The notes under the pieces are model-generated. The model was not told where the DNA came from and did no database searches. It was given only the letters and a program-made list of their open reading frames with translations. A program made the translations under genes and the position numbers. A stretch of DNA of 64,000 nt from contig JADZAY010000019.1 in assembly GCA_020852375.1 (NCBI GenBank), positions 15,319 to 79,318 on the forward strand, read 5' to 3'. This document shows positions 9,641 to 30,154 of this stretch, piece after piece. The stretch comes from Candidatus Yanofskybacteria bacterium (GTDB taxonomy: Bacteria; Patescibacteriota; Minisyncoccia; 2-02-FULL-40-12; GWA2-44-9). Positions within the stretch are counted from its first letter, which is position 1. Every line of letters starts with the position of its first letter.

Positions 9641-9904
9641 GTGCGTCCTCCTCGTATGAACTTCGCCAACGGTACCAGCCCCGCGTGAGGGGTGCAAGGT
9701 CGGTTGTATTGCTGTATAGGAGGAGTACGGTGCGGGTATGAGCCGTATTCGTCGCTGGTTTCTCTATATTACGAACAACGAGGAAATCTCCCGGCACGAG
9801 GAGCTGTTCGATATCCTCTTTTTCATCATCAATACTGCGGCGCTCGTGTTCGGTGTCGTCATGTTCATCGTCCACGACGAGCCCCAATGGATACCCGTGT
9901 TGGT

Positions 9905-9954
9905 CATTGAATACAGTTGGGCGCTTGATAACATGCGCCACAACCGTCCGTAGC
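9905..9954 (+). repeat. Copy A of a roughly 52-bp direct repeat, TCATTGaATAcAGTTGGGCGCTTGATAACaTGCGCCACAaCCGTCCGTAG. It contains the internal palindrome GGCGC-N10-GCGCC.
   Basis: Copy A is 45 of 50 identical to 26552..26601. It lies 38 bp upstream of the first gene of the plus-strand array. Confidence 0.7.
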
Positions 9955-9991
9955 TATGGGGGGCGTGTTGCGTGTGATACAATAGAGGCAT

Positions 9992-11560
9992 ATGCCTTGG
10001 AGGGTGCGTGTTTCACGAATCCGGTGGCTGTCTTTTTGGCAACGCGCCAAGGAGTACTGCTCAAAGCGGAGATTTCTCTCTACTACGAAGAGAGGTGCCT
10101 TGAGCGTCTTAGTGGTTGCGCTGGCTGCAACCCAGACGACCATTGTGCACGCGGGGGTTTCGTATTACTACTCACCGCTGTGCCTTGGGAGTCTGGTGAA
10201 TTCTCGGTATGCGGAGGGCCCGCCCGAAACGGGAGGTGATCCGGCGCAGTTCACGGGGGAAAATTCTGCGCAGGTTCAGAACACGAGCGGCCAAATATAC
10301 TGTGGGAGATTCGCGTCTTCCGACGCTCCGTCCGGTGATGTCCGATCTATTGCTCTTCGCATTGCGGCCACTACATCTGATGCTCTTCGCGGAACTCCTC
10401 CGGTCGAGGTTTTCGACGGGACGACCCTAGATGGATTTGATGCGAGCGGAGTTTTTATACCGCCCCAGGAGACCGACTCCGCTCCAGAAGGGGAGTCTCC
10501 CGTCGCATCAGGATCTGAGGCGCCGGCGCTCGTTCCGGTTGAGGAGCCGTCTCCGATTGCAACCTCGTCTCTTCCCGAAGAGACGCCGCTCTCGATCGAG
10601 CCGGTCGTCCTTGATCCAGTCATTTCGCCATTCGAGTCTCCTGTGCCATCAGATACCGCGCAGCCACCAGCAGCTTCTCCGTTCGTGGAGGAGCCCGCAG
10701 TCGTACCGACCCAAGAGCCCGTCCTAGAGCCCGAGCCCGCCCCAGAGCCGTCAGCGTTTTTGAAGTGGCTGTTTCCGGTAGCTCATGCGGGAGAGATCGC
10801 ATCCGATTCTGCGAGCTTGGACGAGGTCTTTACTGTGCGATATTCGATCGACGGAGCAACATGGATCCCGGCAGGTTCGGTGAAGAGGGGCCAGACGAGC
10901 GATATCCGCTTCGATCTCCCCACTGAGGCGTTCGAAGCCCTTGATAATTTCCAGGTTGCCATTTTCACCGGTCTTGGTCTTGAGACCTCAACGCTCTACG
11001 TTGATAGTATCTGGCTTGAGGTCGAATATGACTCTCCAATTGTTTCGTTCATCGGGGATGTCGCCGCGACGATCGTCGATGCGATCATCCCGGAAGAGGC
11101 GCCCTCCACTTCCGCGGATGCACTAGCGACTCCAACCCCGACGCCGAAGGTGAAGCGACTGGTTTGGGAGTTCGGTTCCTTGGGGAGCGAGGTCTCGACC
11201 GAGCAGGAGCTTCCCTGGTATCCCTCCGGAGCCTCGAGCGCCGACGCTTCCGGACCTGCCAAGGGTGAGCTGCGTATCTCCGGTGACCACATTTCCTTGA
11301 GTGGATCGTGCACCGAGACGCACTTTGTTGTGCTGGTGTTTCGTGGAAAAGAAGACTATGTGCGCGACCCGGCGTCTGCGCTTTACAACGCGGCACTTCC
11401 GTGCGACAGTGGATTACTTTCGTACGAGATGAGCTCGCTTCCGGTGCCGATAGAGGACGGAACGTATTGGCTTATGATCGGCCAGCAGGGCCGTGGTCCG
11501 TGGGAGCCGATCAGCTCGCTGTATCCGGTTCGCATCACCGTGCGAGAGGTTGAGGAGTAA
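9992..11560 (+). CDS. Secreted or membrane-anchored hypothetical protein of 522 aa with a Pro/Glu/Ser-rich low-complexity linker
   Basis: An N-terminal hydrophobic segment ALSVLVVALAATQTTIVHA is followed by a PE-rich linker and a globular C-terminal domain. The RBS AGAGG is present, and the extended -10 element TGaTACAAT at 9975-9983 implies a leaderless or near-leaderless mRNA. Confidence 0.6.
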   Translation: MPWRVRVSRIRWLSFWQRAKEYCSKRRFLSTTKRGALSVLVVALAATQTTIVHAGVSYYYSPLCLGSLVNSRYAEGPPETGGDPAQFTGENSAQVQNTSGQIYCGRFASSDAPSGDVRSIALRIAATTSDALRGTPPVEVFDGTTLDGFDASGVFIPPQETDSAPEGESPVASGSEAPALVPVEEPSPIATSSLPEETPLSIEPVVLDPVISPFESPVPSDTAQPPAASPFVEEPAVVPTQEPVLEPEPAPEPSAFLKWLFPVAHAGEIASDSASLDEVFTVRYSIDGATWIPAGSVKRGQTSDIRFDLPTEAFEALDNFQVAIFTGLGLETSTLYVDSIWLEVEYDSPIVSFIGDVAATIVDAIIPEEAPSTSADALATPTPTPKVKRLVWEFGSLGSEVSTEQELPWYPSGASSADASGPAKGELRISGDHISLSGSCTETHFVVLVFRGKEDYVRDPASALYNAALPCDSGLLSYEMSSLPVPIEDGTYWLMIGQQGRGPWEPISSLYPVRITVREVEE

Positions 11561-11569
11561 CGTTGCGAC

Positions 11570-12202
11570 ATGATCGTCTCAAAGCAGCTCGAACGAATGA
11601 ACGCGGTGGTCGTATTTCGGAGTGACGGGTTTTCTGTCCCCGATAATGCGGCATTCTCGGCGCTGTATCCCGGTCCCGCCGGGAAGGGGATGCGATTCGT
11701 TGAGGATCAGATCACGCGAACGTCCGTGCTGAGCGTTCCGTCGTTGCGACTTGTTTTCGCGGTTGAGGGGAATCGCTTTCGAGTCGACGACGATTCGGGT
11801 CAGGATCCCGGATCGAGCCCGCTACCTGATCATTTCCGGCAAGCTCTCGAAGGGCTCTTTCCTGGGGCGCGTCCGGAAAGCTACGGGTTTAATTTTGATG
11901 TGTACTTCCGTTTCGGGTCGGTTCTTCCGAGCGGTGCAGTATTTCGCTCTTTTGTGAGCGACGAGATCTTTCGCGAACGAGATCTACGCGATGTCGGTGT
12001 TCAGTTCACGATGGAGCGAAATGGCGGCGCGCAGCGCGAGACCTATTTCATAAAATTTGTCGATCCGCTCGAGATCGCGGTGCACGCGAATATCCATGTG
12101 CCGTCTGAGGATATACCGAGCAGTGACGGGCTTCGAGCTCGGTTGGCAGCGGCGTACAATGATATCGAAGGAGTTGTGAATACGCTCAAGCTAAACGCAT
12201 GA
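11570..12202 (+). CDS. Hypothetical protein of 210 aa
   Basis: Tightly linked in the array, and its stop overlaps the next start as ATGA. Third-position GC is high. Confidence 0.5.
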   Translation: MIVSKQLERMNAVVVFRSDGFSVPDNAAFSALYPGPAGKGMRFVEDQITRTSVLSVPSLRLVFAVEGNRFRVDDDSGQDPGSSPLPDHFRQALEGLFPGARPESYGFNFDVYFRFGSVLPSGAVFRSFVSDEIFRERDLRDVGVQFTMERNGGAQRETYFIKFVDPLEIAVHANIHVPSEDIPSSDGLRARLAAAYNDIEGVVNTLKLNA

Positions 12203-13773
12203 CCATCACTTCTCGCGGCGTCACGTTGAATCGCAGGCGGTGGGGGGCGATCGGGCTCCTGTTCCTTATTGCGGTCGAGGGGATTCTTTCCCTGTTCCTT
12301 GTACTTTCACTTGCCGCAGATGCACTTTTTCCTCAAGGGGCGCGTGCCGCGGTGGGGGTAAGTCGCAAGCTTTCCTATCAAGGGAGACTCACCGACTTGA
12401 GCGGAACTGCGCTTGGAGGTAGCTCGGGGACGAACTACTGCTTCCGGTTCCGGATCTACGACGCCGCCACCGGCGGGAGTCAGGTGTGGCCGCTGGGTGG
12501 CGCTACGCCTGCATCGACCACCGTGAAGGTGAAAGACGGGATTTTTGCGACTGCGATCGGAGATGCGAACGTGCTGAACTACGACTTTACCGCGAACGAC
12601 ACGTTGTATCTTCAAGTGGAGGTGAATAATACGCCGACCACGTGCAGTGGCAGCTGGGAGACTCTTGATGTGCGCCAGCGCCTCGATGCCGTCGCGTATG
12701 CTCGTACTGCTGAATTCGTATACTCTGACCTGCTTCGCGTCGCCTCGGGGTCCGCTGCGGTTCAGATCGGGACCGGCGCAGGGCAGGCAACGCCGATCTT
12801 CTTGGGCTTGGATGTGAAGAACACTGATGAGGCGGTCGGGGCTTCGTGCACCACGAATGGGCGGCTGTGGTACAACTCATCTGATTCTCGGGCACGGGTG
12901 TGCCAAGGCGGGATCATTCAAGATATTGTTGACGGTCTTTTGGTTCGGGACGAGGGTGTCGACCAGGGGCGCGCATCGACGGCCCTCGATTTTACCGGTG
13001 GTGGCGTTTCGGCGTCTCGTGGCGCCGGGGGAGTTATCAATGTGAACATTCCGGTGGGGAGCCTAAGCGGGGGGACCACGCGAGCGACGCTTGGTGAGAT
13101 CGTTTTCTCGAACGCGAACGGCGTCTCGTTCGGTGTGAACGGCCAGACCATCACGGCGAGCGTGAACGCGGGCGGCGGTGGAGGGGGGTTCCGCGAATAT
13201 GCGGCGACGAACATGCAGTCATGGAACTCTGCATATTGGGCGGTTGGAGCGAATACGACGCATAGTACGGTTCTGGTTGCCCCTCTTCAGATTCGCGGCT
13301 CCGTTTCCGTAAAGACGCTTGGGTTTATGCTGTCCAGAAGTAGTGGCACAACATTGGCACATACGCTCTATGCGGGAGTGTATTCATTAAATGGAAGTAC
13401 GCTTTCGCTTATCAGCTCAACATCCGGGAACTTCAGTCTTTCAACAACTGCACAATGGGCCGCGGCGCGTATGTACCAACTGACCGGATTGAGCGGCCTC
13501 GAGCTGACCCCTGGTCAGTACTGGGTTGCCGTCCGCGCGGCTGTTACGAGCGGCTCCATTCATCTCTTGGGACGAGCGAGTGCGTCGGGGAACTTTTCAG
13601 GGAGAGTCCTGCCGGGAACGAATAGCTCCGCTACGAATTCATCAGTACAGTGGTTTCCGGGTCAGGGTTGGTTTTCCTCAGGGGCCCTCCCGAACTCCAT
13701 GGCGCTTTCAAACATCAACAACGCCGGGACGCTCGGGCGCGGAGCTCCGTTCATAACGATCACCGAAATATAG
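12199..13773 (+). CDS. Membrane-anchored cell-surface protein of 524 aa with a single N-terminal TM helix; the N-terminal motif LSYQGRLTD...F.F.IYDA.TGG..WP is conserved
   Basis: The TM helix GAIGLLFLIAVEGILSLFLVLSLAA is followed by a large extracytoplasmic Gly/Ser/Thr-rich domain. Translationally coupled to both neighbours. Confidence 0.6.
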   Translation: MTITSRGVTLNRRRWGAIGLLFLIAVEGILSLFLVLSLAADALFPQGARAAVGVSRKLSYQGRLTDLSGTALGGSSGTNYCFRFRIYDAATGGSQVWPLGGATPASTTVKVKDGIFATAIGDANVLNYDFTANDTLYLQVEVNNTPTTCSGSWETLDVRQRLDAVAYARTAEFVYSDLLRVASGSAAVQIGTGAGQATPIFLGLDVKNTDEAVGASCTTNGRLWYNSSDSRARVCQGGIIQDIVDGLLVRDEGVDQGRASTALDFTGGGVSASRGAGGVINVNIPVGSLSGGTTRATLGEIVFSNANGVSFGVNGQTITASVNAGGGGGGFREYAATNMQSWNSAYWAVGANTTHSTVLVAPLQIRGSVSVKTLGFMLSRSSGTTLAHTLYAGVYSLNGSTLSLISSTSGNFSLSTTAQWAAARMYQLTGLSGLELTPGQYWVAVRAAVTSGSIHLLGRASASGNFSGRVLPGTNSSATNSSVQWFPGQGWFSSGALPNSMALSNINNAGTLGRGAPFITITEI

Positions 13774-13774
13774 G

Positions 13775-14587
13775 ATGGACGATCATCATGTTCGAATTCA
13801 TCGTTTGGACGACGTGCTCAAGGACGCATACCATGAGCGGGTCGCCTACAACGCGATGCCGCGCGGTGAGCACTTCCGAGATCTCTCCACGGTCATTATT
13901 ACGGCGGTTCGCGGCGATCGGAGAGAGACGAGGAGTATGAATTGTCCGAAGTGCAATCACCTAATCACCTATGAGCACTTCAGTTCGAACGGGTTCCATC
14001 CGATGGTCGTGGAGTCATGGAAGCGTATGATTCGTCCCATGAACCAGCCTATCGTCGAGGTGGTTTCTTCGGGGTATGAGGTCGGCGACGCCTACGAACA
14101 CTCCATTGAGGCGGTTCTGAACAATCCCGATCTTGCGAAATTCAAGTACATTCTCTTTATTGAGGACGATATGATCATCCCGTGGATGCCTGGTACGCGT
14201 GGCCCTTTGTTCGAGCTGTATCGGCATATGGATACTTACGATGTTGCCGGGGCACTGTATTGGACGAAGGGCGAGGTTTCCATGCCGCTTATTTTTGGTG
14301 ACCCTGCTCGCGGTACGGATAACTACGAGGCGCTTACGAATTGGGATTCGGGGGATGTGGTCGAGTGTAACGGTACCGGCATGGGATTTACGCTTTTCAA
14401 GATGGATTTGTTCAAGGACGCGCGCGTTGACCGTCCCTGGTTCCATACACTTCAGAATGTGGACGAGGGTGGAATGACGCAGGACCTGTATTTCTATCGA
14501 AAGATTCGGAGGCTGGGGTATCGTATTTGTGTTGACACATCGATCAAGTGCGGGCATCTCGATGTGAGAACGGGGCAGGTGTATTGA
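13775..14587 (+). CDS. Glycosyltransferase-like protein, GT-A fold, family 2-like
   Basis: The N-terminus TVIITAVRGDRR is Rossmann-like. A DxD-like motif FIEDDMI is present, as is a C-terminal QDLYFYRKIRRLGYRI resembling the GT2 ED..R...G.RI motif. The start lies 2 nt after the upstream stop. Confidence 0.5.
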   Translation: MDDHHVRIHRLDDVLKDAYHERVAYNAMPRGEHFRDLSTVIITAVRGDRRETRSMNCPKCNHLITYEHFSSNGFHPMVVESWKRMIRPMNQPIVEVVSSGYEVGDAYEHSIEAVLNNPDLAKFKYILFIEDDMIIPWMPGTRGPLFELYRHMDTYDVAGALYWTKGEVSMPLIFGDPARGTDNYEALTNWDSGDVVECNGTGMGFTLFKMDLFKDARVDRPWFHTLQNVDEGGMTQDLYFYRKIRRLGYRICVDTSIKCGHLDVRTGQVY

Positions 14588-14588
14588 T

Positions 14589-15563
14589 ATGGCGCGATCG
14601 CATAACCTAATCCTTCTCGCGGCGCTCGGGGGCATATTGGGTGTTGGTCTTGTCGCGCTCGCCGCGCAAAATCGTTCGTTGCGCAGTCAGCTTGCGGCGC
14701 ACAGCGCCTCTAGCTCGTTTGAGCTTTTGAATCCGGTGAAGGCGCTGAAGATCAATCGGCACTTCATCATCGACTTCTCTGATCTTCGAAAGAGCTTCGA
14801 TCGAATTGTGAAGAAGTATCCCCAGAAAACGTACCTCTATTTCATGTATCTGAGCAATGGTGGCTGGGTTGGAGTGAACGAGCGGGATCAATTTGTTGCG
14901 GCGAGCCTCATCAAAGTTCCGCTCGCGATGGCATTCTATAAGGCGGTGGAAGATGGCCGTATCAATCTTTCCCAGGAATACGCACTCGCGGAGACCGATC
15001 TTGATGATGGATTCGGTGATCTGTATAAAGTCGGTGCCGGTAAGAGCTATTCCGCTCGTGACCTGCTCCGCATCATACTGTCTCGTTCGGATAACACCGC
15101 CATGCGCGCCGTGACGACTCTTCTGCGGAGGGTTGGTATCGATGATCCGCTCAGTGATGTGTACGCCGAGTTGGGGTGGGAGGTGTTGCCTCCGCTGGTC
15201 GCAAATGGAGATGCTTCGGGCATTAATTATTCGGAGATCAGTGTGAAAGTGCTCTCGAATATGCTTCTCGCACTCTATAATGCTACCTATATCAGCAGCG
15301 AACACTCGCAGGAGATCCTCAAGGATCTGAGCGAATCAGAATTTAATGATTCGATTCCTGGGGGGGTTCCCAATGGCACTATTGTTGCGCACAAGATAGG
15401 GGCTTCGGCAAATGACCAGACATTCTCCGACTGTGGCATCGTGTATGTTCCCGGAAGACCCTATCTCCTGTGTCTTGGCTCGAACGGAGGAGATCAGGAT
15501 CGGGCGAACCGTTTCATGGCGGAGGTTTCACGCGCGGTATTCGATTTTGTTACTACCCACTAA
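14589..15563 (+). CDS. Membrane-anchored serine hydrolase of the class A beta-lactamase / PBP-like family
   Basis: The SxxK motif is AASLIKVP, the SDN motif is SRSDNTA, and a KTG-like motif is HKIGAS. An N-terminal TM anchor is present. Confidence 0.65.
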   Translation: MARSHNLILLAALGGILGVGLVALAAQNRSLRSQLAAHSASSSFELLNPVKALKINRHFIIDFSDLRKSFDRIVKKYPQKTYLYFMYLSNGGWVGVNERDQFVAASLIKVPLAMAFYKAVEDGRINLSQEYALAETDLDDGFGDLYKVGAGKSYSARDLLRIILSRSDNTAMRAVTTLLRRVGIDDPLSDVYAELGWEVLPPLVANGDASGINYSEISVKVLSNMLLALYNATYISSEHSQEILKDLSESEFNDSIPGGVPNGTIVAHKIGASANDQTFSDCGIVYVPGRPYLLCLGSNGGDQDRANRFMAEVSRAVFDFVTTH

Positions 15564-15566
15564 TCT

Positions 15567-16076
15567 ATGAAGCTTGATCTTGCGTGCGGACAGCAAAAGC
15601 GGCCGGGATTTCACGGTGTCGATATCACTCCTGGTTCCGGAGTTGATACGGTGTGGGATCTGGAGCGTTTTCCGTGGGAACCGTTTGCGGACAACTCGGT
15701 CGAGGAGATCCATGTGTCTCACTATGTGGAGCATACGAAGGACCTCATGAAGTTCATGGATGAGGTGTGGCGGATCGCCGCACCGGATGCGAAGGTGACC
15801 ATCGTGGGTCCGTACTACACCAGTATTCGTGCATGGCAGGATCCCACCCACACGCGGGCGATCTCGGAGGCGACCTGGGCATACTTCAACAAGGACTGGA
15901 GGGTCGCGAATAAGCTCGATCACTATCCCATTCGTTCCCATTTTGCCATCGACCGAATTTTGACGTTCTTCAACCCGCCGTGGGACAAGAAGAGCGATGA
16001 GGCAAAGCAGTTCGCCCAGCAGCATTACTTCAATGTGGTTTCAGACATTCTGGTCGAACTTCGCGCAATCAAATAG
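15567..16076 (+). CDS. Class I SAM-dependent methyltransferase, Methyltransf_11-like
   Basis: Motif I reads MKLDLACGQ, matching the LDLGCG pattern. The protein is 169 aa, a typical size. Confidence 0.65.
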   Translation: MKLDLACGQQKRPGFHGVDITPGSGVDTVWDLERFPWEPFADNSVEEIHVSHYVEHTKDLMKFMDEVWRIAAPDAKVTIVGPYYTSIRAWQDPTHTRAISEATWAYFNKDWRVANKLDHYPIRSHFAIDRILTFFNPPWDKKSDEAKQFAQQHYFNVVSDILVELRAIK

Positions 16077-16077
16077 C

Positions 16078-16554
16078 ATGCGGCGACACATTGGGCGTGT
16101 CGTGGTGCTTTGCGTCGCGCTTGTGATCGTTTTTGCGGTGTTGCGTGGTGAGCATGACGACGGCGCGTCCCAGGAGCTTCGAGGGTTCGCTATCCGGCCT
16201 CTGGCGCAGGGATTCAGTCTCGGGGGTGAGGATGGTGGTCGGAAATCAGTTCTCCACGACATTCTTTCGGGATATCCCGAACCCGCGAAATTCCGCTCCG
16301 TCGACATTCCTGGCGGGTCGTTTGCGATCGCAGAGTCCTGTCGAGACGCTTATATCGCTGTTATCCTCTATGCTCGGAAGATCGATTACCGAAAGGAGCC
16401 GGCAGCGGCCGCGCTTAATCAGGCATATCCCTGCACGCCCGGGAAGCGTTTCGTGATAACTGTGGACGCGGAGTCGTATGGACTTCGTGCGGGGACATAT
16501 TATATTGTCGTAGCCGATCAGGGTGTTTCCGGTGCTTGGTACAATCCTCGATAA
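16078..16554 (+). CDS. Hypothetical membrane-anchored protein of 158 aa
   Basis: An ATG (MRRHIGRVVVLCVALVIVFAVL) lies 1 nt after the upstream stop, and a TM helix follows. The track ORF begins earlier in an overlapping frame. Confidence 0.5.
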   Translation: MRRHIGRVVVLCVALVIVFAVLRGEHDDGASQELRGFAIRPLAQGFSLGGEDGGRKSVLHDILSGYPEPAKFRSVDIPGGSFAIAESCRDAYIAVILYARKIDYRKEPAAAALNQAYPCTPGKRFVITVDAESYGLRAGTYYIVVADQGVSGAWYNPR

Positions 16555-16563
16555 ATACGCATC

Positions 16564-17022
16564 ATGAAAGCTGTCACTATTCGAATGCCAACGATGAGTC
16601 AGCTGCGGAGTATGTTTTTGATCGGTGCTGCTGTCTTGGGTGCGATTTTTTTCCTTCTGCCCGCCGCTCAGCGCTTTGTATCGGTGCGTGCAGAAACGCT
16701 TCGTGGTTGGCAGGCCGTATATCTGGTGAATGGGGACCTGTATATCGGGCGCATTCGATCGCTTGATGACAGGAGCCTTGAGCTGAAAGACGCATACTAT
16801 GTTTCACTCGGGTCGAATGATGGTGGACCGGGGCAGGCCGCAAGCGTAAAGCTGCAGAGCGGCGAATTCCGGACGGTGTCGCTTGTTCGGTGGGGGTTTA
16901 GCCAGCCGCTGGTCTCCTTTGGGGTGCTGCAGATCGAGCGATCATCAGTGCTTTTTTGGGAATCGCTGAGCGGTGATGCGGAAGTGGTGAAACAGGTCGA
17001 AGAGGCTCGGAAAAAACAGTAA
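16564..17022 (+). CDS. Hypothetical membrane-anchored protein of 152 aa
   Basis: An N-terminal TM segment MFLIGAAVLGAIFFLLPAA is present. Third-position GC is high. Confidence 0.5.
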   Translation: MKAVTIRMPTMSQLRSMFLIGAAVLGAIFFLLPAAQRFVSVRAETLRGWQAVYLVNGDLYIGRIRSLDDRSLELKDAYYVSLGSNDGGPGQAASVKLQSGEFRTVSLVRWGFSQPLVSFGVLQIERSSVLFWESLSGDAEVVKQVEEARKKQ

Positions 17023-17049
17023 GCTCCATTTCGTGTATACTGGAGGCAC

Positions 17050-17883: not shown

Positions 17884-20135
17884 CGCACGACGGCATCCAG
17901 GGCAGTGTGCAAGCGCTCGGGCTGATCGATCGAGTCCTCATACGGGTGATCCGAAGCGGCCTTTTCCTGACCGCGTTTATCCCGCTGGTCATTTTTCAGC
18001 GTACGTTTTCCCCGTTCTTCTTTGGAAAAGAAATACTCTTCCGCTTGTTGATCGAGCTTCTCGCGCCGCTCTATCTCTTCGTTGTCCTGCGTCATCCTGT
18101 CATGCGGCCGCCGCGTTCACTTCCGCTTTTGCTTCTGTGGGTGAGTGTTGCCGTTGCTATTATTGCGGGGCTTGCCAGCGCAAACCCGCAGCTCAGTTTT
18201 TTTGGGACCTGGGAGCGGATGGGCGGGGTGTTTACCCTCCTGCATGGCGCTCTGCTTGTGACTATGCTCTCTGGGATGTTCCAATCGCGAGGGGACTGGC
18301 GGACATTATTCGGATTATCGGTGGGAGTCGCGCTGGTATCAGCGTTGTACGGAATGCTCCAACTGACGACTATTCCGGGTATCGCGGGTGCGACGAGCAG
18401 GTTTCGAATCTTTGGGACGATTGGGAACCCTGCCGCTTTTGCGGGGTATCTTCTCGTAAATGTGTTTCTGGGACTCGCGCTTCTGCCGTCATCTTCGCTC
18501 CGCGCGCGAACTGCCATTGGTGTGAGCACGCTGGTGCTCGGCGGCGGCATCCTACTGAGTGCGGTCAGAGGCGCGGTAGCGGGCCTTATCGCCGGGCTTT
18601 GCTTTCTTGGATACCTGAAGTGGGGCGGCGTGAGCGCGCTGTTTCGGGGTCGAAGGATGGTCATGCTTGTTGTGGGGGCACTGCTGCTCGGTGGAGTGTT
18701 GTTCTTCTTTTCGAACACTGACCACTGGACTCGCCTTGTCCGATTCGATCTTTTCTGGGAGACGATCGGCCAGCGTCTGGTCGTTTGGTGGATGGGCATC
18801 CGCGGCGCCGCACAGCATCCGATGCTCGGGTGGGGACCAGAGCAGTTTCCGTCGCTGTACAGCGTCTGGTTCGATGCGCGCCTTTTTACGAACGCCCAAG
18901 GTGTCATATTCGATCGGGCACATAACATCATTGTCGATATCGCTTCGACGCAGGGGCTTATTGGTCTCACTGTGTATGCCGCGCTTCTGTGGGCCACATT
19001 CATTCGTCTCCCTGGCGTGCTGAAGGCGGGATTCGTGGCGGTTCTTGGTCACCTACTGTTCTTTTTCGATCTTCTTCCGACGGCGCTACTTGTTGGATAT
19101 CTCATCGCTTATGCGGCGCACCGGGGTGATAGCGCCCGGTGGCGGATGCCTACCGGGAAACGGGTGCAGGGGGTCAGTACGGTTGTTGTGGTAGCGCTTT
19201 CTGTTGGAGGATTGCTCCTGAACATCGGATCGCTTACCAGCAACCTCGCGGTGGCGCGCTCATATACCGCCTTCGCCACCGGGAATGGAGTGGATGGGAT
19301 TCGTTTCGGTGAGGTTGCGATGGGACGAGAACGGATGTTTTTGCAGGATGTTCGGAGAAAATACACTGAAGGTCTGGTTGGATATGCGTTTCGCGCCTCT
19401 CCGGAAGAGCGGGAGGCCATCGGCGGTTCTCTGAAAAATCTCCTCGGAGCGCTTCGGGAAGAGATTGATCATACGCCTGACGATTATGCCGGATACCTCT
19501 ATCTGTATAAAGCGTGCCGCGCGAATCGGATGCTCTTTTCGGATGCATACGGCGACAGTGCGTGTTCTCCTGATGTGCTCACTGAGGGGATACGGCGGTT
19601 ACCGCGGGCTCTTCCGCTCCAAGACGAGCAGTACAATGGCCTCATGGAGGCGGGCAAGTTTTCCGACGCGATTATCGTAGTATCAGGCATTCGCGCGGCA
19701 CTTGAGCAGCCGTCGTCCGAGACGTTGTTCATGCTTGGGGCTGCGCGTGTATCGATGGCTGTTGCGCGTGTGCCGCACGACCCTTCTGCCCTCCAAGAGG
19801 GGATGTGGGAGATCCAGTCCGCGATCGACGGCGGGTATCGAGATGCAGGAGCGGTGCAGGCGGCGGCTCAATTATTGGAGCGTTCTCGTGAATTCTCGTC
19901 GGAGCTCGCACTTTTTAGCGCGCTTGCCCGTTTCGAGCCGCGCTATCTGGTTCCGTTGGCGTATACGCATTTGATCATCGGAGAAAAGGACGCTGCGCAT
20001 CAAATAGCCGATCAAGCACTGGCGTTGCCTGACGGCGTCCTGAGCCCGGCCGGGTTTCAGGTGCTGGCAGAGCTCTATCGTCTTCTGGGGGATACTGCCG
20101 GCAGGAGCCGGGCATTTCTCCGGAGCACCCCATGA
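17880..20135 (+). CDS. O-antigen ligase / Wzy_C-domain polytopic membrane protein (PglL/PilO/WaaL-like glycosyl or oligosaccharyl transferase family) with a soluble C-terminal domain of about 330 aa
   Basis: Multiple TM helices are present. The hallmark motifs are RFRIFGTIGNPAAFAGYLL and the periplasmic loop GWGPEQF (the GxGxGxF pattern), along with R..VWWMG. Confidence 0.7.
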   Translation: MTHDGIQGSVQALGLIDRVLIRVIRSGLFLTAFIPLVIFQRTFSPFFFGKEILFRLLIELLAPLYLFVVLRHPVMRPPRSLPLLLLWVSVAVAIIAGLASANPQLSFFGTWERMGGVFTLLHGALLVTMLSGMFQSRGDWRTLFGLSVGVALVSALYGMLQLTTIPGIAGATSRFRIFGTIGNPAAFAGYLLVNVFLGLALLPSSSLRARTAIGVSTLVLGGGILLSAVRGAVAGLIAGLCFLGYLKWGGVSALFRGRRMVMLVVGALLLGGVLFFFSNTDHWTRLVRFDLFWETIGQRLVVWWMGIRGAAQHPMLGWGPEQFPSLYSVWFDARLFTNAQGVIFDRAHNIIVDIASTQGLIGLTVYAALLWATFIRLPGVLKAGFVAVLGHLLFFFDLLPTALLVGYLIAYAAHRGDSARWRMPTGKRVQGVSTVVVVALSVGGLLLNIGSLTSNLAVARSYTAFATGNGVDGIRFGEVAMGRERMFLQDVRRKYTEGLVGYAFRASPEEREAIGGSLKNLLGALREEIDHTPDDYAGYLYLYKACRANRMLFSDAYGDSACSPDVLTEGIRRLPRALPLQDEQYNGLMEAGKFSDAIIVVSGIRAALEQPSSETLFMLGAARVSMAVARVPHDPSALQEGMWEIQSAIDGGYRDAGAVQAAAQLLERSREFSSELALFSALARFEPRYLVPLAYTHLIIGEKDAAHQIADQALALPDGVLSPAGFQVLAELYRLLGDTAGRSRAFLRSTP

Positions 20136-20190
20136 CGGTTATCCACAGCCGAATGGGCTGCTCGTGGTGTAAAATAAGAGCATCAACACT

Positions 20191-20958
20191 ATGGATACAC
20201 CGACGCGCAGTCCAAAGGAGTTCGCGGTGGTTGCGGTCATCGGTTTCGCGCTCTTCTTCGGCTGGTCGCTGTATGACTCTGGTTTGTACCAAGCGCTCTT
20301 CCGTCCGGTAACTGTTTCGGCGGCTTCTTCGAGTTCGACGGCGACACTCTCGGTTACCGTTGGCTCAAATATCACCCTCACCATCGATGGGACCTGTGAT
20401 AATGGAAAAACGAACTGCGATTCGAACGCGAGCGCGAGCTTCGGCACGCTCACGGCCCTGACCAGCAATAACGCCAATACGCGTGTGAAGTTTGTTGCGA
20501 ATGATACTGCTACGCTTGCGATCGGGCGAAAGCGGGCGATCTCGAACGTAACTCTTGCATCGGATGCTAGCCCCGCCTCGATCAACATTTCAGATCTCGG
20601 AAGCGGGACCGGAACCGCGAATGCGGGGCCGAAGGCATTCACGGGTTGCTCGTCTCCGGTGACGGCCGCATGGTCGGAGGGCGTTTCAACGGGGCTTGGA
20701 TACACGGTTTGGGCAACTTCTACAGGGGGCGACAAGTCGGCCGGCTGCTGGGGCACGGGGACCGATTTCACTGGCGGGAGTGCGGCGGGGAACTTGTACG
20801 CAGCTCTTCAGGCCTCCAGCTCCGCGTCTACCGCGCTCACAACCTCTGTTACGGGTACCTACTATGCGTCGATCGGCTACCGTCTCGCAGTCACCGCGAC
20901 GCAAGCAGCAACCACCTATACCGGTAATGTCATCTATACCGGTACAACAACCCCCTAG
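20191..20958 (+). CDS. Ser/Thr/Gly-rich membrane-anchored protein; paralogue B of the protein encoded at 17050..17883
   Basis: The N-terminal TM segment is FAVVAVIGFALFFGWSLY. Blocks shared with the 17050 protein are RAISNVTLASDASPAS, TGLGYTVWA, CWGTGT, YAALQASSSAST, and a C-terminal YTGNVIYTGTTTP. Confidence 0.6.
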   Translation: MDTPTRSPKEFAVVAVIGFALFFGWSLYDSGLYQALFRPVTVSAASSSSTATLSVTVGSNITLTIDGTCDNGKTNCDSNASASFGTLTALTSNNANTRVKFVANDTATLAIGRKRAISNVTLASDASPASINISDLGSGTGTANAGPKAFTGCSSPVTAAWSEGVSTGLGYTVWATSTGGDKSAGCWGTGTDFTGGSAAGNLYAALQASSSASTALTTSVTGTYYASIGYRLAVTATQAATTYTGNVIYTGTTTP

Positions 20959-20997
20959 CGGCGTTGTACTGCGCAATGCGCACGACAGGCGGCGCAG

Positions 20998-21026
20998 TTG
21001 GCTGTTTTTCTGTACGGTGCTATAGT
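20998..21026 (+). promoter_or_regulatory. Sigma70-like promoter TTGGCT-N17-TATAGT; the ATG lies about 7 nt downstream, giving a near-leaderless mRNA
   Basis: The -35 element is at 20998-21003 and the -10 element at 21021-21026. The ATG at 21033 follows. Confidence 0.45.
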
Positions 21027-21032
21027 GCCAGC

Positions 21033-21932
21033 ATGATGAGGTCCACGAGATTTTTGAGCGGCAGTATCGTTCTCTTCGCTGCTTTTTTGTGCGCATCATT
21101 TGCTGCCGCCGCTCCGGTCGGTGTTACCGTTGCTCCGATCCGTTATGCAGTGAATGTGGACCCTGGAGCATCGTATGAAGATGTCATTACGGTTGCGAAT
21201 CCGAACGATTTTGTCCTTCGGGTGCAACCAGAGTTTCAAGATTTCCGCGTGACCGATGGCAATACGATCCAGTGGGTTCCGTCCGATGTCGAGAACCCCT
21301 ATCGGATGGTCGATTGGATCGAGATCGATCGGAGCATTGTCACGCTGAAGCCCCACGAGGAGGCTCGAATTCCGTTCACCATCCGTGTTCCACGGGCGGC
21401 AACTGCCGGTGGGCGGTATGCCGCGATCTTTTTTACGGCGGTGCTGAACAACCAAGGGGAGAATGTTGGTGCAGTCCCTCGGGTCGGTGCTCTCGTGATC
21501 CTGAACGTGAACGGGGATCTTACGCGGACTGGGAATCTTACGTCTTTGGATATTCCTCGCTTTGTTGCTGGCGGTCCCGTGAGTATGAAGGTTGGGTATT
21601 TGAACACGGGAACTACGCATTATGAGAGCAATGTATCAGTCAGTATTCGGGGTCTCATTGGGAAGACCACCGTTGTTCAGGGGGAGCGGCGTTTCGTGTA
21701 CCCGAATATCGAGCGAACGATCACGGCGCAGTGGAGTCGAGCATTCCCGTTCGGCGTGTATCGTGTTACCGCAACGGCGGTTGATGGGAGTGGTGTTTCT
21801 CAAATAATGGAGCGTTGGGTGGTCGCGGTGCCGTTCCGTCTCGTGATACCGGCTGCGCTGATATTCTTCGCACTCTTCTTCGGACTGCGGTGGTTCCGAT
21901 CGAAATTTAAGATCGTACGAGCTTCGGTTTAG
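21033..21932 (+). CDS. Secreted surface protein with a signal peptide and a C-terminal TM anchor, about 300 aa
   Basis: The N-terminus is MMRSTRFLSGSIVLFAAFLCASFAAAAP. The C-terminal hydrophobic helix PAALIFFALFFGLRWFRSKFK is followed by basic residues. The middle appears beta-rich. Confidence 0.55.
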   Translation: MMRSTRFLSGSIVLFAAFLCASFAAAAPVGVTVAPIRYAVNVDPGASYEDVITVANPNDFVLRVQPEFQDFRVTDGNTIQWVPSDVENPYRMVDWIEIDRSIVTLKPHEEARIPFTIRVPRAATAGGRYAAIFFTAVLNNQGENVGAVPRVGALVILNVNGDLTRTGNLTSLDIPRFVAGGPVSMKVGYLNTGTTHYESNVSVSIRGLIGKTTVVQGERRFVYPNIERTITAQWSRAFPFGVYRVTATAVDGSGVSQIMERWVVAVPFRLVIPAALIFFALFFGLRWFRSKFKIVRASV

Positions 21933-22855
21933 TGTGTGGCTGTATGAATATCCTGGGGCGCACGATCACGGTCTGTGCAGTCATGTTTTTCGTGTCGGTT
22001 CCCGCTTTTGCTGCAACCGGGTCGCTTGATGTACGAGTGGTTCCATTTTCTCCGACGCCAACCCCATCGTCGACACCCACTCCGACGGCATCTCCGCTAT
22101 CTGGGGGGTCTGTGAGCGGAGACGTAAGTTGGAGTCGCATTGCGGCGATAGAGCTCAATGGTGTTGCGTTTCCGCGCGCGACCGTTCATCTGCTGAAGGA
22201 CGGCGTTGACGTCGCGCGAAGCGATGCGGACGACGAGGGGCGCTTTCGCATTGCACTATCGGGACTCGCGGGCGGGTCGTATCTGTTCGGTTTGACGGCA
22301 GTTGCGAATGACGGCACAAGAACCGATCCGTATTCGTTCGTAGCTATTCCCATTCTTGGATCCACGACTCATATATCGAATATCCTCCTTCCGCCTCTTG
22401 TCGTGGCGGAGGATAGCCAAGCGGCTGGCGGAACGGGGGCCTGGCTGCGGGGATGGACCGCCCCGGGAGCTCAGATCGAAGTAACGGTTGATGACGGTGT
22501 GTGGCAAGGCATCGCATTTGTCCATAATGACGGATCATACCGAGCTGAAGTTATTCCGAACGATCAACGTTCCGGTGAGCACGTGCTCCGCGTTCGGGCC
22601 ATCGTGGGGCGCATGGGGTCGCCGTCGTCTCGCGAGATCCGATTTGTGGTGGGCGAGGCGCTGCCTTCTGTGTGTGGTACAGGTGTGGACACGGCTGATA
22701 TTAATGATGACGGGAGGGTAGATCTGGTGGATTTTTCCATCCTATCTTTTTGGTACGAGAAACCGATCGATGCCGGGGCTCGTGCTGATCTGAATTGCGA
22801 CGGCTCGGTCACACTCGCCGACGTGAGTATATTGGCTTTCTTTTGGACGGGATGA
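21932..22855 (+). CDS. Secreted protein with a C-terminal type-I dockerin domain
   Basis: A signal peptide is present. Two calcium-binding dockerin repeats are visible: DINDDGRVDLVDFSIL and DLNCDGSVTLADVSIL. The stop overlaps the next start as ATGA. Confidence 0.65.
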   Translation: MCGCMNILGRTITVCAVMFFVSVPAFAATGSLDVRVVPFSPTPTPSSTPTPTASPLSGGSVSGDVSWSRIAAIELNGVAFPRATVHLLKDGVDVARSDADDEGRFRIALSGLAGGSYLFGLTAVANDGTRTDPYSFVAIPILGSTTHISNILLPPLVVAEDSQAAGGTGAWLRGWTAPGAQIEVTVDDGVWQGIAFVHNDGSYRAEVIPNDQRSGEHVLRVRAIVGRMGSPSSREIRFVVGEALPSVCGTGVDTADINDDGRVDLVDFSILSFWYEKPIDAGARADLNCDGSVTLADVSILAFFWTG

Positions 22856-23721
22856 CCTCCTCTCGTTTCATTGCTCTCTGTGCGGGTGTCCTGCTTGGAG
22901 TTCTCCTGAGCCCCCTGCGGGGACATGCAGCAGAGCTGATCCTTGTCCGGGATGGCTCTTCGGGGTCGGGAGGCGTTACGGTGCGCGTCGTGGTCAAGCC
23001 GGAGGAGCCCGTGAACGCCCTTTCGGGTGAGTTGCGATATGACCCCGCGCTGTTGAAGGTTGAAGATGTAAATGCTGCCAACTCGGTCATCAGCCTTTGG
23101 ACGCGGGCCCCAGCGGAGAACTCCGAGGGGGTGATCGTTTTTGCGGGAGCAATTCCCGGAGGACTTACGCCTGCAGTGGCGGTGAACGCGGAGGTGTTCC
23201 GGGTACGCTTTTCTACTCGTTCTGCGGGTGCGACGAGTCTGCGCATGAGCGACCTCGTGGCGTACCTACACGGTCCGAATGCTCAGCGCGATGTCGTTCG
23301 GACCGCGCCGCTCTTATTGGATCTTACGCGTCCAGCAAGCGCATCGGAGCCGCTTATGCTCGACTTTTCTCCGCCAGAGCCGTTTGTGGTCCGTTTGGTG
23401 AAGAGCGTGGAGCTGATGAACGCGGCGTCGGTGCTCGTCTTTCAGACTGCCGATAAGGGTTCCGGTGTCGTTTCATACCAGGTTCGGGAGCGACGGTTCG
23501 GGATTTGGAGCGATTGGCGTGAAGCTCAAAGTCCGATGCGGATATCCGGTATCCACCTCTTGAGTGCATACGAGATTAAAGCGGTGGATGCTGTCGGGCA
23601 CGAGTATATTGCCCGGTTCACTCCTCCCCGACTGGAGGCCCTTTGGACGATCGGGGCTTCGCTCGGAGAGAAGATCTGGCACATCATGCGTTCGGCCGTT
23701 CGCTGGCTTCGTGTGTGGTGA
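22852..23721 (+). CDS. Secreted protein with a cohesin-like domain
   Basis: The signal peptide is MTSSRFIALCAGVLLGVLLSPLRGHAA. The segment GVTVRVVVKP...LSGELRYDPALLKVEDV...GVIVFAGAIPGG fits the cohesin pattern (V.V.V...F.L.YDP..L...). Translationally coupled to the dockerin gene. Confidence 0.55.
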   Translation: MTSSRFIALCAGVLLGVLLSPLRGHAAELILVRDGSSGSGGVTVRVVVKPEEPVNALSGELRYDPALLKVEDVNAANSVISLWTRAPAENSEGVIVFAGAIPGGLTPAVAVNAEVFRVRFSTRSAGATSLRMSDLVAYLHGPNAQRDVVRTAPLLLDLTRPASASEPLMLDFSPPEPFVVRLVKSVELMNAASVLVFQTADKGSGVVSYQVRERRFGIWSDWREAQSPMRISGIHLLSAYEIKAVDAVGHEYIARFTPPRLEALWTIGASLGEKIWHIMRSAVRWLRVW

Positions 23722-23752
23722 TGCGCACTGGACATATGGTATACTAGAGGGT

Positions 23753-24427
23753 ATGTTCACCCATCAGCTCATCCTAGGAGTAGGCGTGCTGGTTAGTATG
23801 CTTGCGGTATTGATCGGATTCGGATTCGGGGCTGAAATAGTTTCCGTTGCCATTGCGACAAACCTTCTCCTTATCAGTACCTTTGGGGCGAAACTGATCT
23901 CTATTTTCGGGTTCGTCAGTAATATTGGAAACATTTTCTATGCGACGACATTTTTTGCTGTTCAACTCTTGCTTGAGCGATATGGCAGGCGGGAAGCAGT
24001 TCGGGCGGTGTGGGCCGGCGTGTTCGCTCTCGTGGTGTTCGTGATCATGGGGTAGTTGGCTCTGGATCTGGGCGAGATCGTTGTGTCTGGCGATGTCGAT
24101 AAAGCGATTACCACGATATTCCAAGGCGGCATCAGACTCGGAATCGCTATCGGTATACCATTTTTGATTGCTCAACACATTCAGATCGCGATTTTTGAGA
24201 CGCTGAAGCGTTCGACGGGTAAACGACTGCTTTGGGTGCGGAGTCTCGCGGCGACGGTCGGCGGGCAATTCATCGATAGCATTCTCTTCTTCTCGATCGC
24301 ATTCGTGGGAATGCTTCCCGATCCGCTGGTACTTCAGATGATGGTCGCGGGATTTCTGGCAAAGACAGGGTTCGGTGTATTGAGCGTACCGCTCCTCTAT
24401 GTAAGTCGGAGAGCTCGGCATGCATAA
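23753..24427 (+). pseudogene. yhhQ: YhhQ/DUF165 (vitamin-uptake-transporter family) queuosine-precursor transporter, interrupted by an in-frame TAG at 24053-24055
   Basis: The track ORFs 23564..24055 and 24056..24427 are in the same frame, separated only by the TAG. The C-terminal half carries the family signature LWVRSLAATVGGQFIDSILFFSIAF. The ATG at 23753 is preceded by the extended -10 element TGgTATACT, which makes the mRNA leaderless. TAG is used as a true stop codon elsewhere in the window. Confidence 0.5.
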
Positions 24428-26540
24428 TATGGCGCGCTATTTTGTTTTCTGGCAGAAGATCGCATCGCGGCTCTGGCAGCAGCTTGTTCGGAGGCGCGCC
24501 TTTTTTGGTATGACGGTACTAGGACTTGTTCTTGCGGCGAGCATATTTCTGATCGAGCCGAAGATTGTCGGGCTCGTGACCCGGAACGAATTTCTCCAGT
24601 ACAGAGAGCGAGTCCGGCAGCATGCGCGCGAGCAGACGGTGCCGCTTCTTGATGGTGCGCGTGAGATCGCGCGATCAGATGCGCTGATCCATTTTATTCG
24701 TGATGGAGATGTTTCGAGCATTGCTCTGCTTGCCCACCGCGAGGGAGAGAAGCGTGGTATCAATGCGGTTCTTGTCGTGGACCGGAACGGCGTCGCGCTC
24801 TCCCGATCATATGCGGTGACACAGTACGGCGACTACACATTTCAGGCATCTCCCTGGGGCGACGCACTCTCCCGAGGGGAAGAGGTGAGTGGCATCGATC
24901 GGGGGGTGGCGCATCCGCTGGTGATGTTTGCTGGTGTCCCGGTGATGGACAACGGAGAATTTGTCGGCGCTGTGGTTACAGCATTCCCGTTATATGATGA
25001 CTACGCTAGCGTGTTCCGGTCTACACATCTCCGGGGTGGGGAGCACGTCGCGTTCTATCGGCGAGGGATCGGGTTGACCGGAGCGAGCTTTACCGACCAA
25101 GCGGATCGGAGTGCGATCGCTGCGTACCTGAACTCCGGGAGTGACCTTACGACGTGTTGCAGCGATCCGGAGCTTTTGCGTATTCACGACGATGTGTACC
25201 TTATCGGCAATATCGTCTTTCCGGGGGTGCGAGAGCCGGCTGGCGGGATGATCCTCCTTCATCCGGTGCAGTCACGCGGGCAGCGTCTCGGTATGGTTTT
25301 GGGGATGACAGTTGCGCTGCTTGCCGCTCTTTCATATCTTGCGTGGCGGAGGCGTCTAACCCTGCTGGATGTTCGGTGGGCGCTTTTCTTCTGTGCGCTT
25401 TTCTTTTTCTTTGCGCTCCAAATAATCCTGACCGTCTTTCTTACGCGCCAGGGTTTCGTGCGGGTCATGGATGTGCCCGAGACGACTTCAATCTACAACT
25501 CGACCATGAGTTTTGGTCCCGAGACCGCTGTGTTCGAACTGAACTCAGAACACCGGATCGCGATCAATGTCGAGACTGGGGGAGAGCGGGTGAACGCTAT
25601 CCGAGCCGTGGCCTCTTTCGACCCGTCACGGGTCGCCGCTGTCGGTGTCGAGTCAACAGATTCCCTGTGTGAGAAGGGGATTGTGCTCGAAAGAACGATC
25701 GACAACGAGAGTGGCACCGTTTCTGTCTCTTGTGGATTACTGGGAGCTGAATTTTCCGGCACCGATGTCTTTGTTCGGCTCATTCTTCGTCCCCTCAAGG
25801 CGGGTGACTTTACGCTTCGTTTTGCGGAAGGGACTCAAGTGCTCGCGAATGATGGGCTGGGGACCAGCGTCTTGCGCTCGTGGACGGATAGCGGGTATAC
25901 GGTAATCGCCGAGCGCTCGAGTGCTTCCAGCGGTAAGATCCCATTCACCATGTTCTCTCCAACACATCCCAATCGTGAGCGCTGGTATTCTTCAAGGGAT
26001 GTGGGCGTCTCATGGCTTTCGCGGCCTGGCATCCGCTACACCTACGCTGTCGATGCTACCGGCAGTGAAGTACCGGTGCCTGTCGGCGACTCGTCTCTCG
26101 AGGTTGTCGGGTTATCAGACGGAGCACATATGATCCGACTGTCTGCCTGGAAAGACGGCATCAGAACGGAGACAGCAGAAATCCGCCTAAAGATTGATGG
26201 GACTCCCCCCGAAGGTTTTATGGTCAGGGCGAGCGACACGAGTGTCGTCGCTGGGGATGTTGTTCGCATCGATGCTGCGGCAGCCGACAATCTAAGTGGG
26301 TTGCAAAAGAGCACGTATGTTCAGGTAGACGATGGGGTCCTACTCCCTGTGCGGCTTCCGGTTTCTATACCGTTCACACGGAAGGGGGTGCATCAGGTGA
26401 TGGTTCGTGTGTTTGATAATGCAGGAAACCATGCGGATGCTACGACCGAAATACATGTTCGGTCGCGGTCCGGTTTCATAGACCGCTTTTTGAACGAACT
26501 CCTTCCGACCATTTCGGGGTTCGCCTCCTCATTCCTTTGA
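24420..26540 (+). CDS. Large membrane protein of 706 aa: an N-terminal TM helix, an extracytoplasmic sensor-like domain, a second TM helix, and a C-terminal region with a second cohesin-like module
   Basis: TM helices occur near residue 30 and near residue 300 (VLGMTVALLAALSYLAW, FFFALQIILTVFL). The C-terminal segments AVASFDPSRVAAVGVE and GTDVFVRLILRPLKAGDFTLRF resemble a cohesin. Confidence 0.55.
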   Translation: MHNMARYFVFWQKIASRLWQQLVRRRAFFGMTVLGLVLAASIFLIEPKIVGLVTRNEFLQYRERVRQHAREQTVPLLDGAREIARSDALIHFIRDGDVSSIALLAHREGEKRGINAVLVVDRNGVALSRSYAVTQYGDYTFQASPWGDALSRGEEVSGIDRGVAHPLVMFAGVPVMDNGEFVGAVVTAFPLYDDYASVFRSTHLRGGEHVAFYRRGIGLTGASFTDQADRSAIAAYLNSGSDLTTCCSDPELLRIHDDVYLIGNIVFPGVREPAGGMILLHPVQSRGQRLGMVLGMTVALLAALSYLAWRRRLTLLDVRWALFFCALFFFFALQIILTVFLTRQGFVRVMDVPETTSIYNSTMSFGPETAVFELNSEHRIAINVETGGERVNAIRAVASFDPSRVAAVGVESTDSLCEKGIVLERTIDNESGTVSVSCGLLGAEFSGTDVFVRLILRPLKAGDFTLRFAEGTQVLANDGLGTSVLRSWTDSGYTVIAERSSASSGKIPFTMFSPTHPNRERWYSSRDVGVSWLSRPGIRYTYAVDATGSEVPVPVGDSSLEVVGLSDGAHMIRLSAWKDGIRTETAEIRLKIDGTPPEGFMVRASDTSVVAGDVVRIDAAAADNLSGLQKSTYVQVDDGVLLPVRLPVSIPFTRKGVHQVMVRVFDNAGNHADATTEIHVRSRSGFIDRFLNELLPTISGFASSFL

Positions 26541-26551
26541 TCCTTGCCGGA

Positions 26552-26601
26552 TCATTGCATATAGTTGGGCGCTTGATAACGTGCGCCACAGCCGTCCGTA
26601 G
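26552..26601 (+). repeat. Copy B of the roughly 52-bp direct repeat, paired with copy A at 9905..9954
   Basis: Copy B reads TCATTGcATAtAGTTGGGCGCTTGATAACgTGCGCCACAgCCGTCCGTAG. It lies 12 bp after the last gene of the array and is followed directly by AGGAGG-N4-GTG. Confidence 0.7.
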
Positions 26602-26604
26602 GAG

Positions 26605-26847: not shown

Positions 26848-26860
26848 GTTTGCGGGGTTA

Positions 26861-26889
26861 TTGCATACTTCGAAAATATGTTATATAAT
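26861..26889 (+). promoter_or_regulatory. Strong sigma70-like promoter TTGCAT-N17-TATAAT; only an 8-nt leader separates it from the ATG at 26898
   Basis: The -35 element is at 26861-26866 and the -10 element at 26884-26889. Confidence 0.55.
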
Positions 26890-26897
26890 ATATCGCT

Positions 26898-27962: not shown

Positions 27963-27968
27963 TCCATT

Positions 27969-29063: not shown

Positions 29064-29070
29064 GTCATTG

Positions 29071-30056: not shown

Positions 30057-30094
30057 ATGCAGGCATCATACGCCTCCCCGGGATTGAAGCAATC

Positions 30095-30122: not shown

Positions 30123-30154
30123 GTCGGGTACAGCTCTTTTCACGGGAGGCCATA

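Follow-up and report, generated by a model that had tools for sequence, protein, structure and literature searches.

Why should a long array of cell-surface genes be enclosed by two copies of one short sequence? This question is raised by a 64,000-nucleotide (nt) stretch of a Candidatus Yanofskybacteria genome (contig JADZAY010000019.1), referred to below as the window, in which a preliminary description had noticed the two copies and offered two readings of them: a shared operator or leader element placed at operon starts, or the att-like boundaries of an island. We conclude with moderate confidence that the repeats mark the two junctions of a 16.6-kb insertion, which follows the stop codon of a small membrane-protein gene that we call s71 and which duplicated the end of s71, most likely through a Campbell-type integration. 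The att-like reading was right in its essentials, with site-specific integration as the presumed route, while the operator or leader reading did not hold.

A repeat search of the window returned a direct repeat of 50 nt, with 46 identical positions, whose two copies (copy A and copy B, Table 1) lie 16,648 bp apart. Two bracketing copies had been reported at these places and only small corrections were needed: the repeat measures 50 nt and not 52 bp, 46 and not 45 of 50 positions are identical, copy A begins one base further to the left (at 9904), and copy B, which indeed lies just after the last array stop, follows it by 11 nt instead of 12 (the TGA of a gene of 706 amino acids (aa) ends at 26540). 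The remaining details were confirmed, as copy A ends 38 nt before the first array gene (ATG at 9992), the TAG of copy B overlaps an AGGAGG that is followed by a GTG at 26611, and the palindrome GGCGC-N10-GCGCC is present in both copies. Allowing up to 3 mismatches, a 26-nt core motif was found in exactly two places of the window, and none of 100 dinucleotide-preserving shuffles contained any match; considering that none is expected by chance and that there are two copies only, this counts for a real repeat pair. Outside a giant repeat-protein gene, the window has no repeat pair near this length and identity, and the longest exact run common to copies A and B is about 19 nt. A generic repeat, which would be scattered in many copies, does not fit these results, with only two copies in the window and no further ones in 1.05 Mb of related loci (68 fetched loci). 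We also considered a repeat longer than 50 bp and rejected it, as the flanks are at random-level identity and a 19-aa tblastn alignment starting from 26542 adds chance matches only.

Copy A proved to be coding sequence, a point missed earlier: it is the 3' end of s71 together with its stop codon. A search of 5.8 billion proteins returned 295 homologues of s71, and the best 120 of these 295 are about 70 aa long, at least 70% identical and without a Pfam domain or an informative name; those among the 120 that have a source name belong to Parcubacteria/Patescibacteria. In an alignment of 30 homologues the C-terminal tail QWIPVLVIEY[ST]WALD[NS]MRHNRP is almost invariant. Compared with the orthologue in the closest related locus (L002, introduced below), s71 is 96% identical in amino acids and only 83% in nucleotides, and each of the 10 nt by which copy A differs from L002 is a synonymous change or an exchange of one stop codon for another, leaving the amino acids identical to those of the orthologues. 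The conserved tail, the excess of amino acid over nucleotide identity and the silent nature of the differences from L002 argue that s71 is a real gene under strong purifying selection. Its family consists of single-helix membrane proteins of about 70 aa with the motifs YITNNE, SRHEE and QWIPVLVIEYxWALDNMRHNRP, and is widespread in Parcubacteria. Annotation of s71 gave no Pfam or other assignment; its only match, to part of the F0F1 ATP synthase subunit a model in NCBIfam, is weak (E = 4e-4) and probably spurious.

Related loci were fetched with the ABC-2 permease of the right flank, taking one genome per GTDB species. The near matches of this permease were all from Patescibacteria, and the best one, with 82% aa identity, was L002, from a Candidatus Yanofskybacteria metagenome-assembled genome (MAG). 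In L002, s71 (8423-8638) is followed after a 6-nt gap by the homologue of a gene that we call p80 (8645-8884), and then by the ATPase and permease genes of an ATP-binding cassette (ABC) transporter. A single L002 stretch aligns to both copies of the window. The same empty site was found in L063, a Logan contig in which s71 is directly joined to p80 and the ABC genes; at 95-96% identity to L002, L063 represents a second strain of the same species, so that the comparison holds only one independent outgroup species. Between the copies (9954-26551) neither L002 nor L063 gave any blastn or tblastn match while both flanks matched, and tblastn with all 17 array proteins found no match in L002. The check proposed earlier, whether related strains lack the bracketed segment, was therefore positive: the closest species is without exactly the 16.6 kb and has s71 joined to p80. 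In a four-way alignment, copy A matches the relatives only to the left of the repeat block and copy B only to the right, all four sequences match within it, and the right edge of the block coincides exactly with the s71 stop codon. This is the classical attL/attR/attB picture.

Was the array gained in the lineage of the window or lost in that of its relatives? With one outgroup species parsimony cannot decide, and the polarity rests on the distances between copy A, copy B and L002. The 50-nt block has 4 differences between copies A and B, 10 between A and L002, and 12 between B and L002; moreover, copy B carries lineage-specific synonymous states of copy A, among them an AGT serine codon, AAC, CGT and the TAG stop. 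Because copy B resembles copy A more than it does the sister species, the duplication arose in the window's own lineage and, barring gene conversion between A and B, copy B was copied from the s71 of that lineage after its split from L002 and L063. If copy B is younger than this split, then the empty site is ancestral and the array is an insertion. An origin of copy B in the window lineage would further mean either that a very close relative supplied any attP-like segment, or that the recipient's own sequence was duplicated.

We then asked what copy B has become. The frame leading into it has no start codon and contains stops at 26479-81 and 26491-93; read in the s71 frame, copy B would encode IAYSWALDNVRHSRP followed by a stop, and tblastn with the s71 C-terminus matched it at 68% identity. 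Three of the four differences between copies A and B are amino acid replacements at positions where the family is invariant: E58A, M66V and N69S. Results showed that non-synonymous changes of sense codons amount to 0 of 6 between A and L002 and 3 of 4 between A and B (Fisher's exact p = 0.033, calculated by hand), which points to copy B as a dead, drifting fragment in which amino-acid-changing substitutions accumulate. Homologues of p80 (78-80 aa) were found only in the window genome, the L002 genome and L063. At the empty site of L002 and L063 the s71 stop likewise overlaps a GAGGAGG, followed by the start codon, and this overlap of ribosome-binding site and stop in the relatives suggests translational coupling of s71 and p80. 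The insertion would have broken the coupling, yet kept the 50 nt upstream of p80.

Table 1. Features at the two junctions of the window, with the matching segments of the empty site in L002.
Feature	Position in window	Strand	Basis
Match of L002 8333-8636	9649..9951		blastn
s71, 71-aa small membrane-protein gene, target whose 3' end is duplicated	9738..9953	+	ORF (open reading frame)
Copy A (attL-like): last 16 codons and TAG stop of s71, functional coding sequence	9904..9953	+	repeat search, ORF
Putative inserted 16.6-kb segment: 17 co-directional, tightly packed ORFs (9992-26540), mostly envelope/surface	9954..26551	+	domain scans
Speculative promoter-like site TTGATC-17-TATAGT, across right junction and copy B	26537..26565	+	promoter scan
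Copy B (attR-like): non-coding relic of the s71 3' end	26552..26601	+	repeat search, reading frame
Match of L002 8591-18622, collinear	26554..36604		blastn
Shine-Dalgarno AGGAGG of p80, overlapping the relic TAG	26600..26605	+	sequence; empty-site comparison
p80, 78-aa gene (ORF open from 26605), native downstream partner of s71	26611..26847	+	ORF, homologues
ABC transporter ATPase, conserved right flank	26898..27962	+	Pfam
ABC-2 permease, conserved right flank	27969..29063	+	Pfam

Taken together, these data suggest the following course of events. The ancestor would have resembled the sister species, with s71 directly followed by p80 and the ABC transporter and with the ribosome-binding site of p80 overlapping the s71 stop. 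After the species split, 17 envelope and surface genes would have been inserted in the window lineage exactly after this stop, duplicating the last 50 bp of s71; copy A would have stayed the working end of s71, and copy B would have become an untranslated relic that still gives p80 its native upstream context and its Shine-Dalgarno sequence. A Campbell-type integration, in which a circular DNA carrying an attP-like s71 3' end (ending at the stop codon) recombines with the chromosomal s71 end, is preferred because the block ends at a gene end, the 50-bp duplication is too long for a transposon and inverted repeats are lacking. Elements that restore the 3' end of the gene in which they insert would indeed be expected to give a block with its end exactly at the stop codon, as is seen at s71. 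The acting recombinase would not be encoded by the island, having been lost or acting in trans, or else host homologous recombination may have done the work. The direct repeats, being 92% identical, would still permit a precise and scarless loss of the island.

As for the cargo, the earlier term cell-surface gene array is a fair description judging from the domain matches, several of which are below the Pfam thresholds, while 8 of the 17 ORFs have no Pfam match at all. The domains comprise a Wzy_C/O-antigen-ligase-like membrane protein (Wzy_C/TPR), a WxL-interacting-protein (WxLIP)-like protein, Big_6 with dockerin, cohesin-like, dCache/PKD and beta-lactamase-like folds, a methyltransferase, a Vut_1 transporter and a glycosyltransferase-like protein.

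Several observations weigh against an insertion of this kind. The first of them is that neither the array nor the 64-kb window as a whole yielded an integrase, transposase or excisionase. Scans with Pfam, PHROGs and NCBIfam detected no integrase, transposase, relaxase or phage protein in the 17 array ORFs, Pfam/NCBIfam scans detected no recombinase in about 30 further long ORFs of the window, and tblastn of the Xer-like recombinase of a relative (L064) against the whole window was negative, in agreement with the preliminary description, which had seen no integrase. A recombinase hidden among the ORFs without Pfam match was considered and rejected on the same tblastn result and on the PHROGs and NCBIfam scans, which gave only a glycosyltransferase-like match, in a 270-aa array ORF. 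Terminal inverted repeats are also absent, as the segment ends CTATGGGGGGCG... and ...CCTTGCCGGA are not inverted repeats of each other. Similarity to known phages, plasmids and IMG/VR contigs was likewise lacking: blastn of the first array half against phage DNA and of the second half against plasmid DNA gave no match, nor did tblastn of s71 against the phage and plasmid collections, and a degenerate pattern of the s71 C-terminus had 0 matches in IMG/VR. Composition can be read both ways: the array is slightly atypical in GC content (56.5% versus 59.3% in the right flank) and in tetranucleotide usage (distance 15-18 versus 10-14, x10^-3, with the reference flank included in its own comparison), which would fit an insertion, and the deviation is small. 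Considering that there is a single outgroup species, the polarity drawn from copy A, copy B and L002 could also have been distorted by gene conversion between A and B. Finally, the last array gene (706 aa) has one distant homologue only (P0125, 46% aa identity), on an 11,771-bp contig of the Joint Genome Institute (JGI) metagenome 3300078620. This contig carries, in order, ORFs of 298, 294 and 299 aa, a Vut_1 gene (225 aa), a 698-aa dCache_3 protein, a 63-aa ORF, an M23 peptidase (minus strand), a holin-like gene, a 182-aa ORF, Peptidase_C39_2, a 155-aa ORF and MurJ (minus strand), so that it shares the gene order of the right half of the array, which as in the window precedes Peptidase_C39_2-MurJ. 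This synteny hints that the array may be older at this region than a recent insertion implies.

If the array was inserted, could copy B have been kept by selection for the expression of p80 and the ABC genes, through a promoter at the junction or through the native initiation context? This would add to the insertion scenario, and we regard it as rather unlikely. The promoter-like site over the junction and copy B has a -10 box that uses a C-to-T difference between A and B, the Shine-Dalgarno sequence and the relic stop overlap in just the way seen at the empty site, and a 50-bp relic survives in a tightly packed genome. On the other hand, the promoter-like scan found 1 site where 0.7 were expected by chance, which makes it a lead and not evidence, the T at the -10 position is also present in L002 and may be ancestral, and a sigma-70 scan describes promoters of the candidate phyla radiation (CPR) poorly.

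The main rival explanation starts from a different ancestor, in which the order was s71, array, a second full-length paralogue s71' and p80. Copy B would then be the relic of s71', which lost its 5' 166 bp in the window lineage, while the L002 lineage lost the array by recombination between s71 and s71'; the array would be ancestral at the locus and not newly inserted. The JGI contig gives this some support, as the syntenic right half of the array, upstream of Peptidase_C39_2-MurJ, is there followed by a 63-aa uncharacterised ORF, and s71 is conserved enough for paralogues to recombine easily. An ancient paralogue is at odds with the distances given above, where copy B differs from copy A at 4 of 50 positions and either copy from L002 at 10 to 12, and with the AGT serine codon and TAG stop that B shares with A alone, which make the duplication younger barring gene conversion. 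In addition, ten other s71 loci, in eight distinct contexts, have no second s71 copy or fragment in the retrieved flanks of up to 10 kb downstream, a limit at which islands of more than 10 kb would be missed. We therefore consider a relic of an ancient paralogue unlikely, even somewhat more so than selection on copy B.

A hairpin shared by two operon leaders was the other reading that had been offered, and it is very improbable. Both copies indeed fold into the same hairpin (-15.7 kcal/mol, z = -2.7 in copy A; -15.1 kcal/mol, z = -1.4 in copy B), and each copy has a co-directional gene set downstream. At the orthologous sites this structure is not conserved: in the L002 50-mer the hairpin is not favoured (z about 0), in L063 it is broken by a synonymous CGC-to-CGG change, and in L060, L064, L065 and L066 it is absent through synonymous changes. 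Moreover, copy A lies in a gene under amino acid constraint, the relatives have a single copy, and Rfam gave nothing at gathering thresholds over the whole window, nor at E<=1 around both copies. Since it is broken in orthologues, the hairpin is a by-product of encoding Ala-Leu…Met-Arg-His in a genome rich in GC, and its presence in both copies is explained by one being a copy of the other. An assembly artefact, with the array threaded between near-identical repeats, can hardly account for the locus either, since the window does come from a MAG contig (its proteins match NCBI entries IT406_03435, _03520 and _03525) but the copies have 4 differences and a longest exact run too short to mislead assemblers at normal k, and the junctions are clean, with private substitutions in each copy.

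How does the insertion that we favour compare with known mobile elements? Target-site duplications of transposons are about 2-15 bp long. Like the present repeats they are direct duplications of the target flanking inserted DNA; here, by contrast, the duplication is 50 bp, and there is neither a transposase nor terminal inverted repeats. The locus is closer to the att-flanked islands found at gene 3' ends (tRNA, tmRNA or protein-coding), in which direct repeats of tens of bp bracket a lineage-specific block, one repeat is the intact 3' end of the target gene with the block ending at the gene end, and a related genome has the empty site. It departs from them in that neither of its ends, nor the rest of the 64-kb window, yielded an integrase or excisionase, that the target is a 71-aa CPR membrane-protein gene and not a tRNA, that the cargo is all envelope/surface, and that the case is known from sequence alone. 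The classical att sites, tRNA and tmRNA genes, are absent from the window. A further parallel is the microcin H47 island of Escherichia coli, described as flanked by direct repeats, without its own recombinase and lost by RecA-independent recombination between the repeats (PMC3191183, PMC5426353). As far as these reports describe it, that island is similarly small (13-17 kb range), with short imperfect direct repeats and no site-specific recombinase of its own, and a precise loss through the repeats is plausible here too; there the mobility is experimental, here it is read from sequence, and organisms, cargo and repeats are unrelated. Islands at dusA also insert in a conserved protein-coding gene, which is reconstituted, although in the account given they do so at its 5' end and always with a cognate integrase (PMC4482086), whereas the present case concerns a 3' end and no integrase was found. 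The locus seems to be the att-like junction scar of an integrase-less genomic island with surface genes, which is a kind already known.

We also asked whether s71 may be used as an insertion site more widely. Downstream of s71 we found Peptidase_C39_2 in L060/L061, a 306-aa tyrosine recombinase, directly adjacent, in L064, a helix-turn-helix protein in L065, a flavoprotein in L066 and a YbjQ-like protein in L068. The recombinase of L064 (Candidatus Yanofskybacteria GCA_016181145.1, 10226-11146) has a Phage_integrase domain and an XerC/D-like size and begins 12 nt downstream of the s71 stop, and over the 10 kb that follow L064 showed no duplicated s71 end. Because a tyrosine recombinase directly follows s71 in that locus and the downstream neighbours differ in every lineage examined, one can imagine, as an improbable idea that finds no support in the single s71 ends of these loci (flanks of up to 10 kb downstream), that the invariant s71 3' end is a docking site in CPR/Parcubacteria for integrase-less surface cassettes, with a chromosomal Xer-like recombinase acting in trans, or homologous recombination following DNA uptake, as the means of transfer. 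If true, this would be a swappable module of cell-surface variation for tiny, host-attached bacteria, and a repeated use of the s71 site would raise the weight of the finding; at present the locus is a single island scar of ordinary appearance, found in an unusual organism.

The genomes of CPR/Patescibacteria are tiny, and as these bacteria rely on host-cell contact, surface proteins are central to their biology; to our knowledge, the gain or swapping of surface genes in this group is poorly documented. The present locus offers a cleanly resolved case, with an insertion point defined to the nucleotide, an empty site in a sister species and a relic copy that is dated, in which a 16.6-kb block of surface genes would have entered a Yanofskybacteria genome without a recognisable mobility gene. 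It also brought to light a very conserved and unannotated family of membrane proteins of about 70 aa, s71, whose 3' end is the junction. The case is notable mainly for its CPR host, its surface-gene cargo, its conserved 71-aa target and the fact that no recombinase was found.

The core motif was also searched in larger collections, with 0 matches in the GTDB representative genomes and a single match in the JGI metagenomes, on an unrelated low-GC contig (L001). This match was rejected as a true relative and taken as coincidence, as a collection this large should yield about 1 match to 20 specified bases by chance alone. At L001 1021-1041 (Ga0256397_1005974) a 282-aa, HNH-endonuclease-like ORF ending …HIHPQSKLPYDSLEHPNFQKCWALDNLRPLCAIENIKKNNK reads through the 21-nt core in frame; this ORF contains …CWALDNLRPLC…, and the peptide WALDN(L/M)R that it has in common with s71 is probably a coincidence.

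Some array genes showed features of their own. The ORFs of 277 aa and 255 aa (17050-17883 and 20191-20958) are paralogues, with 41-47% identity over the C-terminal 150-180 residues, and the C-terminus of the 522-aa ORF resembles the 185-aa ORF at 29% (11276-11503, 16306-16539). The Vut_1 gene, a YhhQ-like queuosine-precursor transporter (23564-24427, +), has an in-frame TAG at 24053-24055 (shown by an asterisk in …VFVIMG*LALDLGE…) with Pfam matches on both sides, and its homologue on the JGI contig is intact (225 aa); the TAG could reflect a pseudogene, a sequencing error or read-through. In many Saccharibacteria loci (L040-L047, L052, L057), relatives of the 152-aa ORF (16564-17022, +) with 25-32% identity lie some 2 kb upstream of the homologue of the ABC-2 permease, which is a recurring association.

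Just upstream of s71 lies the giant repeat-protein gene mentioned above, a 2003-aa Thr/Gly/Ser-rich surface-protein ORF (3045-9056, -) with internal repeats of about 700 nt. A relative of it is present in L063 (1-3720) and absent in L002, which is 95-96% identical and has a 309-aa ORF instead; the giant gene is a second surface locus, variable at strain level, on the other side of s71. Further to the right, at 54173-56827 (-), the longest ORF containing an enolase measures 884 aa. Enolase similarity is confined to residues 476-881, and the 475 N-terminal residues may be no more than a reading frame left open in GC-rich DNA, or else a fusion.

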